From IMG/VR virus record IMGVR_UViG_3300012944_000004: a stretch of 64,000 nt of DNA; one strand, given 5' to 3'. A program made the translations under genes and the position numbers. The notes beneath the pieces were generated by a model. That model had not been told where the DNA came from, did not search any database, and was given only the letters and a program-made list of their open reading frames with translations. The stretch comes from a virus. Positions 31,469 through 52,435 of this stretch are shown here, one piece after another; the first letter of the stretch is position 1, and each line of letters opens with the position of its first letter.

Positions 31469-32734
31469 CTATCGCAAACGACCGACGACGGCGCGTACGC
31501 CACTTTTGCCCAGGGAGATCGTACGAAACGAACCCTTTTGGAAGTCACCAGGGTCGCGCTGGCGAATCCGAACGGTGTTCGGCTTGATGTCCGGCTCCTT
31601 GTGCACCGCGTAGTTGTGACTACGGGCCCACGCCTTGGCGCGTGAAGGAGAAAAACGCGGGCGGGGGAAGAGCAGCGTTTGCACCGTCGTCTTCTTGCTC
31701 GACTCACTCGCAGTGAGTGGCAGCGGGTTGACCTTGGCGATGAGTCGCCCAGCAGAGCCCTTCCAGACGCCGCGCGCGGCGCCGAGGTAGCTCTGCTTCG
31801 TCAAAAGGGCCCAGACGCCAATGCCGGCTGCGCCAGTCGCCAACGTGATCGCAGCGATGATAGCGATGCGTTTCGCTGTTGACGGCGCGGTGGCCGCGGA
31901 AGCGCCTGCCTTCTGCAAGGCCGCCATCGAGTCCGCCGTCGTAGGCAGATGGCGAAGCGTGATCGGCGTGAGAATGAGACCCCCCGTGTTGACCGTGAAG
32001 GAGCTCGTTGTCTGATCTGGCCCGTTGTAGTTTGCAGGGTTGACGAGATCGGCGAACGTCGCGTTGTCAGGCAAATGAGTGTATTTGGCGACAATCGCAT
32101 TGTAGAGCGCGTCGGCGATCGGATCGTAGTTCGGGTTGGCCCCGAAGCTGGTGATGTGATCGAAGACACGCTGGACGACTCGCGTCGAGGACGGCGCGTG
32201 CTTGGCGTTCCAGCTGGCGATGAGGCTCGCGAGCAAGACCTGCGGCGGCAACTTCGCCTGAGGAAAACAGTTCTGCGCGAGCAGCCAGTTGTACTCGAGG
32301 ATGGGATTCGCGTAGGCCTCGAAGCTCCCCGGAGCATCGGGGCCGTAGCTTCCATTGAACGAGGCCCACGACGTGAAGTTGGGCCACGAGGTCAAGTCGA
32401 GCGGCGAATTGCTCCGCGGGGGGTTCGCACACGTGCCGGCGCCACCACTCGCGTGCGGCGCTACGTTGTATAGCTCGAGGAGCCCGGCGAAGACGGGGCC
32501 TGCAATGGGTACTGCGGCTGCAGCCGTCGCCGCCATGGCCTGAAGGACCGCCTGCGAGGCCGCGTCGGAGATTTGGATGGTGCCATTGGGCCCAAGGGTG
32601 ACACCCTGCGGCGCCTTGTTGAACGACTCGTAGTACGCAGCACCCGTCGCGACATCCGTTTGGATGTCGTCGGGAACATACGAAGTCAGGTCGAACTGCT
32701 CGTTGATCTGGCCCGCGATGCTGGCTGCGCTCAC
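31469..32734 (-). CDS. Membrane-anchored virion protein candidate with a basic C-terminal domain
   Basis: TM IAIIAAITLATGAAGIGVWALL; tail VQTLLF...AKAWARSH...RIRQRDPGDF..FRTI.L..GVRAVVG. Confidence 0.65.
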   Translation of the reverse strand: MSAASIAGQINEQFDLTSYVPDDIQTDVATGAAYYESFNKAPQGVTLGPNGTIQISDAASQAVLQAMAATAAAAVPIAGPVFAGLLELYNVAPHASGGAGTCANPPRSNSPLDLTSWPNFTSWASFNGSYGPDAPGSFEAYANPILEYNWLLAQNCFPQAKLPPQVLLASLIASWNAKHAPSSTRVVQRVFDHITSFGANPNYDPIADALYNAIVAKYTHLPDNATFADLVNPANYNGPDQTTSSFTVNTGGLILTPITLRHLPTTADSMAALQKAGASAATAPSTAKRIAIIAAITLATGAAGIGVWALLTKQSYLGAARGVWKGSAGRLIAKVNPLPLTASESSKKTTVQTLLFPRPRFSPSRAKAWARSHNYAVHKEPDIKPNTVRIRQRDPGDFQKGSFRTISLGKSGVRAVVGRLR

Positions 32735-41658: not shown

Positions 41659-42550
41659 GAAGACATCCTCCAGCGCTCGATGGCGTACATGAAGTTGGTG
41701 GCGGTGGCGCGTACTTCGCGCAGCTTTCGGATGTGGGCTGTGTCGATAGAGCCATCGCTCATCTCGTCATTGCCAGCATCACGAAGCACCTCGTCAAGGC
41801 GCTTGTTGAGGCGGCGGATGCCGTTCTCGAGAATCTTTGCCTCCTCTCCAAGAAGAGCGTTTTCGAGATGGGCCTCCATCTGCTTGACGAAGTTGTCGGC
41901 GAGCTTGCGCTGTGTCAGCTTCTTCAACTTAGCCACTCGGAGCCTCCAGCTTCTCTTTCCTGACCGTCGTGCCGTGCGCTGCGGCGATCTGCTCGAAGTT
42001 CAACGCGCACGCTTCGCAGACGAGAACACGATCCCCGTCGCGGAAAGTGACGCGATGGGTGACGTCGGCGCCGCAGCCGGTGTCGGCAGGCGGGATGATG
42101 GCGCGGCACTTCAACGACATCTCTTCACCATCTTTGCTGCCGCATTGGCGGCCTTCTTAGTCTTGAAGAACTCATGCCAGTCACCGTCGTGCTCCTCACA
42201 GCGCCAGCGAACTTCGAAACCCAAGTGCGACGAGCGTACGTAGTTGACGCCGTCCCACTTGCCCGACTTCGCGTAGCATCTCTGTGCCACTACTTCTGCG
42301 TCTCCCGACTCGGTGCCTCGTCGATGAGCTTCGGCCGCTCCTCGAGCGCCGAGGGCCCAACCTCGACGCACGAGACGATCGTGTAGCGCTTCGCAACGCC
42401 GTCGACCTGCAGCGCCTTGGCTGACGCGCCTTCGATGTCGTGGGCGAAGACGATGACCTTGCGCTCGAGGACGACCTCGAAGCGCAGGGCGTCCGACTTC
42501 GGGAGGCCTTCGTCGGCAACTTCAACTTGCTCTGTCGCACCGTTTTCCAT
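41655..42550 (-). other. Four small genes (41655-41936, 41929-42120, 42111-~42290, 42290-42550)
   Basis: Coupled ORFs; 41929-42120 has CxxC...CEAC. Confidence 0.55.
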
Positions 42551-42562
42551 TGGCTTACCTCG

Positions 42563-42622
42563 TGGACCTGGCGGGATTCGAACCCGCATACCTAGGCCGC
42601 GGCTCCAGCCGCTTTCAGGCCC
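42563..42622 (-). ncRNA. 60-nt tRNA-like RNA with Ala identity (G3-U70, A73) and no anticodon arm
   Basis: GGGCCUG/CAGGUCC acceptor; GCGGC-UGGA-GCCGC D-like arm; perfect T arm GCGGG-UUCGAAU-CCCGC; only 11 nt where anticodon and variable arms should be. Confidence 0.6.
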
Positions 42623-42854
42623 GCTGCGATTCCTTGCGAGTCACGGTGATTCGCACGACCTTGTAGGTGGGCCCTGCGCTGTCTCTACGTTTGCTCCACA
42701 CGGCGATGTGGGCATCGGCGCGTCCGCGAGCGTGATGGAAGGTCGTACGCCCTTCAAAACCATCGCCCCACTTATTGTCTGGGTAGAGCCACTCCTTCTG
42801 CGTGGCCCCAACAAGAAGCCTGGAGATAGCCCACTTCTGAAACGACTCAGCCAT
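42615..42854 (-). CDS. Hypothetical protein
   Basis: 79-aa ORF; stop overlaps the 5' strand of the tRNA-like element. Confidence 0.55.
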   Translation of the reverse strand: MAESFQKWAISRLLVGATQKEWLYPDNKWGDGFEGRTTFHHARGRADAHIAVWSKRRDSAGPTYKVVRITVTRKESQRA

Positions 42855-42860
42855 GGAGAC

Positions 42861-52328: not shown

Positions 52329-52435
52329 AGGATCGCCGACGAGTCGAACGTCGGTCCCTGCAATGCGCGCAGGTCACCCGAGCTGCCTGACACGCTGGCA
52401 GCCAATCCCATAAGCCCTCGGAGGGCTAGCAACCC
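52329..52435 (-). ncRNA. Second tRNA-like fold (107 nt) in a hairpin-rich leader
   Basis: Acceptor GGGUUGC/GCGAUCC with G3-U70; U8A9; GCCC/GGGC D stem; T arm CGACG-UUCGACU-CGUCG; two extra hairpins in place of a canonical anticodon arm. Confidence 0.4.

Follow-up and report, generated by a model that had tools for sequence, protein, structure and literature searches.

A 60-nucleotide anticodon-less tRNA-Ala-like element between two genes of an uncultured soil virus

Genomic setting and fold of the element

The window analyzed here is a 64,000-nucleotide stretch of an IMG/VR virus record, an uncultured soil virus with a genome of 77.7 kb and 77-bp terminal repeats that would fit a circular assembly. 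Genes for PolA, a MazG-like protein and a DnaQ-like exonuclease are followed on the same strand by ORF79, a 60-nt tRNA-like element, ORF86, further small ORFs and a Dam methylase gene. The element is intercistronic and oriented as this early/replication operon, and no promoter-like or terminator-like site was found to flank it. A tyrosine integrase is encoded at about 11.5-12.9 kb, ∼30 kb from the element. When a capsid-like protein was used to search for a host, no match was obtained in 401 Acidobacteriota genomes or in five genomes that carry the 25-nt 3′ end of the element.

ORF79 (42615..42854, minus strand) is an orphan reading frame, and its UGA stop codon (42615-42617) coincides with nucleotides 6-8 of the element. 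A word-indexed search revealed no homologues of ORF79, no Pfam or PHROG match was obtained, and an exhaustive search returned one weak, repeat-inflated match to Big_13/Big_6 Ig-like repeats. Its coding bias is weak, with a GC3 of 0.69 where eight other ORFs in the operon have 0.72-0.85. The downstream ORF86 (42290..42562 including its SD sequence, minus strand) is an 86-codon gene that is conserved in relatives. Its SD sequence, GAGG (42558-42561), lies 7 nt from the ATG at 42550 and is separated by a single C from the last base of the element, A73, in agreement with the original prediction that the element ends just before the SD sequence of the next gene.

The minus strand of positions 42563-42622 reads GGGCCUG-AAA-GCGGC(UGGA)GCCGC-GGCCUAGGUAU-GCGGG(UUCGAAU)CCCGC-CAGGUCC-A. 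The observation of a 60-nt anticodon-less tRNA-Ala-like element at 42563..42622 is confirmed, drawing on sequence, fold, Rfam and covariance-model analysis. Nucleotides 1-7 (GGGCCUG, 42616..42622) form the 5′ strand of the acceptor, with G3 paired to U70. The 3′ acceptor strand (CAGGUCC, 42564-42570) and the discriminator A73 (42563) together occupy 42563..42570. A 3-nt AAA junction (42613-42615) leads into a D-arm-like hairpin, GCGGC-UGGA-GCCGC (nucleotides 11-24, 42599..42612), for which an analogue, CCUC-UGGA-GAGG, is found in an unrelated viral contig (L178, see below). Then follows an 11-nt linker, GGCCUAGGUAU (nucleotides 25-35, 42588..42598), which on alignment with full tRNA-Ala occupies the place of the anticodon arm and variable loop and includes a variable-loop-like AGGUAU. 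The T arm, GCGGG-UUCGAAU-CCCGC (nucleotides 36-52, 42571..42587), was recovered by folding, Rfam and pattern scan alike.

At −29.8 kcal/mol (z = −2.1 against shuffled sequences), the minimum free energy structure of the element comprises its 7-bp acceptor, D-arm-like hairpin and T arm, and this fold was still the minimum-energy solution within 221 nt of context. All 17 pairs (7 + 5 + 5) are intact and standard, the sole wobble being G3:U70. The 7-bp acceptor, 5-bp T stem, 7-nt UUCRANY loop and discriminator base of a tRNA are all present, and the alanine identity set of G3:U70 and A73 is complete by sequence and fold. There is no anticodon arm and no 7-nt anticodon loop in the 28 nt between acceptor and T arm, and CCA is not encoded, CGA being the next sequence after A73. 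The original prediction had described this sequence and fold, with its G3-U70 pair, A73, GG-containing D-like loop, T arm and missing anticodon arm, and the description was borne out exactly by folding.

Relationship to tRNA-Ala, tmRNA and other tRNA-like RNAs

The Rfam tRNA model, RF00005, gave an end-to-end alignment to the element at 26.4 bits, short of its gathering score, 29. The corresponding E value was 0.002 for a 401-nt search space, 0.32 for the whole window searched with all 4227 families and about 8e-5 for the whole window searched with the tRNA family alone; at gathering thresholds, Rfam gave no match over the window. ARAGORN, run as the kind of tRNA finder by which the original prediction was to be checked, made no call on the element: with default settings it reported neither tRNA nor tmRNA in the window or in the 77.7-kb genome, so that no other tRNA gene was found in this virus. 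A relaxed ARAGORN search did call a 72-nt “tRNA-Arg(gcg)”, which has a mismatched acceptor and was set aside in favor of the perfect 60-nt fold. A covariance model was also constructed from nine sequences, of which seven were viral minis (short tRNA-like sequences described below) and the other two a full tRNA-Ala and the window element. Here, the window element, being among the training sequences, scored 59.9 bits against 14.4 bits for the next-best site in the window.

Loose scans for acceptor and T-arm combinations identified similar chance sites elsewhere in the window. One site passing such a scan, at 52329-52435 on the minus strand (GGGUUGC..CGACG-UUCGACU-CGUCG-GCGAUCC-U), precedes an SD sequence and ATG; it was rejected as a second tRNA-like element, with no Rfam tRNA match at E ≤ 10 and none from our own model. 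Given that the 3′ 25-mer of the 60-nt element and its 5′ GGGCCTG are identical to those of true tRNA-Ala(CGC) genes, the element is more than a chance site of this kind.

Both acceptor strands, the T arm and A73 match Anaerolineales/Chloroflexota tRNA-Ala(CGC) at 32 of 32 nt, an example of the parent type being found on the minus strand of such a genome at L027 4311-4383. Relative to this tRNA, the element is shortened from 73 to 60 nt, the anticodon arm is gone (the alignment suggests that 17 nt have been reduced to about 4), 5 bp and a 4-nt loop make up a reshaped D arm, and position 8 is A rather than U. The identity of acceptor and T arm implies that the element either descends from tRNA-Ala or is under the constraints that apply to one, and is no chance hairpin. 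Its 28-nt middle has diverged in the alignment beyond recognition from any tRNA-Ala. That all 17 stem pairs are intact beside so divergent a middle argues against simple decay. An alanine-type acceptor also occurs at six Acidobacteriota loci (L019, L032, L045, L078, L099 and L121) called tRNA-Asp by ARAGORN, with anticodon GTC or ATC. These have the acceptor GGGCCUG/CAGGUCC with G3:U70 and A73, at least some with C in place of U33, and may represent dual-identity or non-canonical tRNAs.

The 3′ 25-mer is, in addition, identical to acceptor pieces of permuted tmRNAs from phage contigs and Alphaproteobacteria, so the resemblance to tmRNA 3′ ends originally noted for the 3′ half of the element was well founded. 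The closest described phage RNA is that of “Mycobacterium phage DS6A (TLD only)”, listed by Hudson et al. in 2014 (PMC4131195); according to these authors, tmRNA is strongly inhibited by a molecule of this kind, whether or not it can be charged, perhaps because SmpB is titrated (PMC4131195). Further CDS-less tmRNAs of ∼65 bp, from jakobid mitochondria and Mallomonadaceae plastids, are given in a 2025 tmRNA database paper (PMC11915505). We located the DS6A RNA at JN698994 28478-28557 (L152), an 80-nt sequence between gp33 and gp34; it is unannotated in that GenBank record.

Both the DS6A RNA and the window element are phage-borne, stand alone between protein genes, carry G3:U70 in an acceptor of 7 bp, have A73 and a canonical T arm, and possess no decoding or mRNA part; the length is 80 nt in DS6A, ∼65 in the organelles and 60 here. 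In DS6A, GGUCGAC follows the acceptor, a P2 helix is present and GCAC precedes the T stem, the tmRNA model wins the clan competition (RF00023, 34.7 bits), and our own model gives 32.3 bits. In the window element, by contrast, the junction is 3 nt long, the hairpin is D-arm-like and the linker includes AGGUAU. Of the two tmRNA signatures, it has neither GGnUUCGAC behind the acceptor nor (G)GAC ahead of the T stem, and the tRNA model wins the competition within clan CL00001. Thus, the element has the outline of a TLD, with G3:U70, A73, a T arm closed by the acceptor and no anticodon arm, yet the missing motifs and the clan result place it outside tmRNA. A tmRNA-like frame, GCG GCU GGA GCC GCG GCC UAG (AAGAAA-stop), can be read within the element, but was dismissed as a chance product of GC-rich sequence, given that the 28-nt middle holds no helix or pseudoknot for a resume codon; the frame in L178 is similar.

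The mascRNA/MEN-β RNAs and the t-elements of plant mitochondria are tRNA-like folds that are cut from longer transcripts by RNase P and RNase Z. In common with these, the window element is a tRNA-like fold of ∼60 nt within a longer, here predicted, transcript; RF01684, the Rfam family of mascRNA/MEN-β RNAs, aligned to it end to end at 21.4 bits (family gathering score 42.5). The known examples are eukaryotic or organellar and have no common descent with the window element. RNase P, RNase Z and the CCA-adding enzyme need no more of a tRNA than an acceptor/T-arm minihelix, and neither does AlaRS if G3:U70 is present; alanylation in vitro proceeds on such a stack when it has G3:U70 and A73. Minihelix-Ala and microhelix-Ala were reportedly described as AlaRS substrates by Francklyn and Schimmel in 1989. 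Whereas those molecules are synthetic, the window element is a natural genomic sequence with the same G3:U70 and A73 stack and is a candidate substrate. Taken together, the element is a tRNA-derived form of the little-studied phage top-half tRNA or TLD-only RNAs.

Related loci, a sister-virus mini and other viral minis

Homologues of the exonuclease define a virus family with genomes of about 77 kb. Six related loci were read around this gene, with exonuclease identities to the window of 85% (L138), 83% (L140), 65% (L137), 63% (L134 and L135) and 61% (L136). None of the six has the element at the window position. The slot between exonuclease and ORF86 (42551..42860, minus strand) contains a ∼290-nt insert, ORF79 plus the element, that is absent in L138 and L140. 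The ORF86 homologue directly follows the exonuclease in L138 (slot 1600-1611), and an unrelated 59-codon ORF fills the slot in L140 (6738-6974). ORF79 with the element is thus an accessory insert in a hypervariable slot. The next slot is variable as well, with a 59-codon ORF in the window virus and a tRNA-like mini in L140.

The element itself was seen in one virus, represented by two identical assemblies. Searches of IMG/VR with the exonuclease and PolA gave no relatives, and a metagenome scan for the exact ends of the element with a short gap gave 0 matches. Since the element is private to one virus, covariation within the lineage and purifying selection are not measurable on it. The covariation expected in homologues by the original prediction is missing to the extent that the homologous loci have no element at this position. 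Analogous minis of unrelated phages do carry compensatory changes in their free T-stem pairs. Those minis, together with the mini in L140 and the documented TLD-only tmRNA of DS6A, speak against a plain refutation.

The mini of the sister virus L140 (contig Ga0307474_10000063, 7181-7238, plus strand) was identified with our own covariance model. This 58-nt sequence scored 22.4 bits (E = 0.003), whereas everything else in 83 kb of relatives scored ≤11 bits. Its acceptor is 6 bp long (GCCCCG/CGGGGC) and includes C3:G70, the discriminator is A73, and the T arm reads GCGGG-UUCGACU-CCCGC. The sequence takes up exactly the space from the stop codon of the ORF86 homologue to the next gene, whose ATG is 3 nt away. 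The window and L140 minis (60 and 58 nt) occupy adjacent but different intergenic slots, and their acceptor sequences are entirely different, which suggests derivation from different parent tRNAs. The presence of two unlike minis in adjacent slots of sister viruses argues for selection of the mini form. Alanine identity is not the common feature of the lineage, given the C3:G70 pair in L140.

Similar sequences were sought in two pattern scans of IMG/VR, in which an alanine-type acceptor and T loop were fixed, three T-stem pairs were left free and the gap between acceptor and T arm was too short for a real tRNA. The 17 + 11 = 28 contigs recovered (L158-L185) contain at least 26 distinct minis of 51-69 nt with alanine-type acceptors, a set that includes at least one short true tRNA-Ala (L182) and two sequences that ARAGORN also labels as tRNAs (L177 and L185). 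The unconstrained T-stem pairs were complementary in 75 of 78 cases, against about 29 expected by chance, with 4-6 pair types at each free position. Versions of both patterns with G3:C70 yielded 2 + 3 = 5 contigs only, making G3:U70 ∼5-fold commoner as raw contig counts that are not normalized to full tRNAs per acceptor. CCA is encoded by 11 of the 26 distinct minis. Some minis lie in phage tRNA arrays, most are standalone and several adjoin an SD sequence and ATG. In a sample of 17 viral minis, 10 matched the RF00023 tmRNA model end to end at 27-53 bits. Judged by sequence, tmRNA-like minis from which the mRNA part has been deleted look far commoner than the single literature case of DS6A.

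The features shared by the viral minis and the window element are an acceptor, a short hairpin, an 11-13-nt linker and a T arm. On unrelated contigs, the layout of the window element recurs at L178 10164-10222 (59 nt, with the same UGGA loop), L184 5964-6021 (58 nt) and L175 7962-8022 (61 nt), and the same order of parts is seen at L169 676-736 (61 nt). For L178 and L184, the tmRNA score is slightly the higher (27-28 bits), whereas the window element scores better as tRNA. The 358-kb phage L169 contains two minis, at 673-736 and 954-1029, and further examples are found at L166 6083-6141 and L173 623-689.

Two minus-strand RNAs in phage tRNA arrays have the exact acceptor and T arm of the window element around a different middle. 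The first (L004 3276-3467, 192 nt) has a good D arm and a ∼120-nt insert and matches RF00023 end to end at 22.6 bits. The second (L012 3381-3469, 89 nt; 48.7 bits with our own model) begins, as does the window element, with GGGCCUGAAA; it contains an arm interrupted by a symmetric GUGAA/CUGAA internal loop, and an SD sequence and ATG come after it. An unannotated 87-nt tRNA-like sequence was also noted in Streptomyces phage Heather (L191 244-330; MK686069 about 31910-31996). It has a good acceptor, D arm and T arm and an irregular, enlarged anticodon region, and was not called by ARAGORN.

Proposed processing, alternative readings and significance

The element may be excised from the early transcript by tRNA end-processing enzymes, which would at once divide the message and set free a minihelix RNA that can be charged; we rate this model at close to, though just under, an even chance. 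Transcription of the element, every cleavage step, charging and a trans-acting role are what we infer within it. The element would be transcribed as part of a polycistronic early RNA and then be recognized as the top half of a tRNA, a 12-bp stack of acceptor and T arm. Cleavage by RNase P would fall 5′ of G1, the 3′ end would be made after A73 by RNase Z or by trimming, and CCA would be added. The message would thereby be severed between ORF79 and ORF86, with loss of the ORF79 stop codon, and ORF86 would be left with a 12-nt leader carrying its SD sequence. The ∼63-nt stable RNA released would be chargeable by AlaRS but useless to the ribosome for decoding, and could act as a competitor or decoy for AlaRS, EF-Tu, enzymes that target the CCA end or acceptor and possibly trans-translation. 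The version in which it is a decoy for tmRNA/SmpB is weakened by the absence of tmRNA-specific motifs. The original prediction is thus borne out in part: its structural reading holds, and its processing mark and its chargeable decoy both stay candidate roles. If ORF79 is translated, ribosomes at its stop codon would have to melt the acceptor stem, and an RNase P cut would give a non-stop ORF79 message. The overlap of stop codon and acceptor either serves regulation or indicates that ORF79 or the element has no function.

If the element is functional, that the trans-acting small RNA matters most falls somewhat short of an even proposition; the excess of G3:U70, the encoded CCA, the members in tRNA arrays and the DS6A precedent favor it. 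That the cut in the mRNA matters most in cis is a weaker possibility, favored by the L140 mini and by adjacency to the start codon. The sub-threshold tRNA score and the missing ARAGORN call count against excision, as does arrival in a hypervariable slot with an orphan ORF, as would be expected of a passenger fragment. The C3:G70 pair of the sister mini counts against an alanine-type model in particular, alanine identity not being common within the lineage.

The element could instead be an inert relic, a tRNA-Ala gene that came with the ORF79 insert or from a host or phage, lost its anticodon arm by deletion and has no function. This is unlikely, but its absence at the window position from all sampled relatives, its place in a hypervariable slot beside an orphan ORF of weak coding signal, a score below the tRNA gathering threshold and a virus with no other tRNA genes all agree with it. 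Neither one-step deletion nor neutral decay predicts what is found, namely 7 + 5 + 5 pairs and a canonical T loop intact around a 28-nt middle diverged beyond recognition, and a relic sits poorly with a second, independently derived mini of near-equal size in the sister virus or with dozens of like-sized minis elsewhere that have compensatory T-stem changes. A role as purely cis-acting punctuation of the mRNA, in which the fold is a cleavage or stability signal like a t-element or mascRNA site, the excised piece is discarded, and the ORF79 and ORF86 transcripts are separated or their levels set, is decidedly unlikely. Such a role would suit an element that fills an intergenic gap in operon orientation, ends 1 nt before an SD sequence, has no flanking promoter or terminator and is aligned end to end by the mascRNA model, and would suit a sister mini that adjoins the next start codon without alanine identity. 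It does not explain why G3:U70 and A73 are kept and why G3:U70 predominates ∼5-fold over G3:C70 among viral minis; moreover, many minis encode CCA or sit in tRNA arrays with no mRNA to cut, and relatives express the same downstream gene without such an element.

It is improbable that the element is a true TLD-only tmRNA as in DS6A, binding SmpB so that host trans-translation is blocked or redirected. The G3:U70 pair, A73, the T arm, the 3′ 25 nt shared with permuted tmRNA acceptor pieces, the DS6A precedent (PMC4131195) and the 10 of 17 sampled minis that score end to end with RF00023 point in that direction, but the tRNA model wins the clan for the element where tmRNA wins for DS6A at 34.7 bits, GGnUUCGAC and (G)GAC, found in DS6A and the RF00023 consensus, are both absent, and the junction lengths (3 nt, then a hairpin) are those of a tRNA rather than a tmRNA TLD. 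An attP or other recombination core matching a host tRNA-Ala or tmRNA gene, which the original prediction had also proposed, now appears most improbable. The virus does encode a tyrosine integrase, and integrated elements of Anaerolineales do duplicate the 3′ half of the same tRNA-Ala(CGC). Partial copies of this gene occur in Chloroflexota (L036, L069, L083, L090, L098, L103, L106, L122, L131 and L133); they start in the anticodon loop, adjoin unrelated upstream DNA and do not include the 5′ strand, and look like att junctions of integrated elements. In contrast to these duplicates, the window element retains a perfectly paired 5′ acceptor strand. Comparison of the 3′ end with bacterial and phage tRNA and tmRNA genes did find a match, over 25 nt, but the match to tRNA-Ala(CGC) is not confined to the 3′ half, the 5′ strand being shared too. 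The presence of both acceptor strands and the ∼30-kb distance to the integrase argue against attP; in addition, its location is internal to an operon, no element is present in relatives whose gene order is the same, and a scan of the window found no T-arm-like site or candidate attP near the integrase.

The usual explanations for tRNA genes in phages are that they add to codon supply or let the phage escape anticodon nucleases. Neither purpose can be served by a tRNA that has no anticodon, so that keeping such a molecule points to another use of the scaffold. Among phages, only the TLD-only tmRNA of DS6A has been described, as a side note in the tmRNA literature; to it are added here a tRNA-derived version from a tailless virus, an independent second version in its sister virus and dozens from viral metagenomes, recovered by two simple pattern scans. 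On a broader reading, which we hold to be rather unlikely, anticodon-less tRNA top halves would form a widespread and largely undescribed class of virus small RNAs, swapped between intergenic slots and excised by the tRNA-processing enzymes of the host, with the alanine-type members charged and acting as decoys while their excision re-cuts the viral operon. Decoys of this class could jam trans-translation or soak up defense enzymes that attack acceptor and CCA ends. If they are processed and charged, such RNAs would give viruses a compact means of acting on AlaRS, EF-Tu, trans-translation or defenses directed at acceptor ends, and would be a bacterial-virus counterpart of the logic by which organelles use tRNAs as punctuation.
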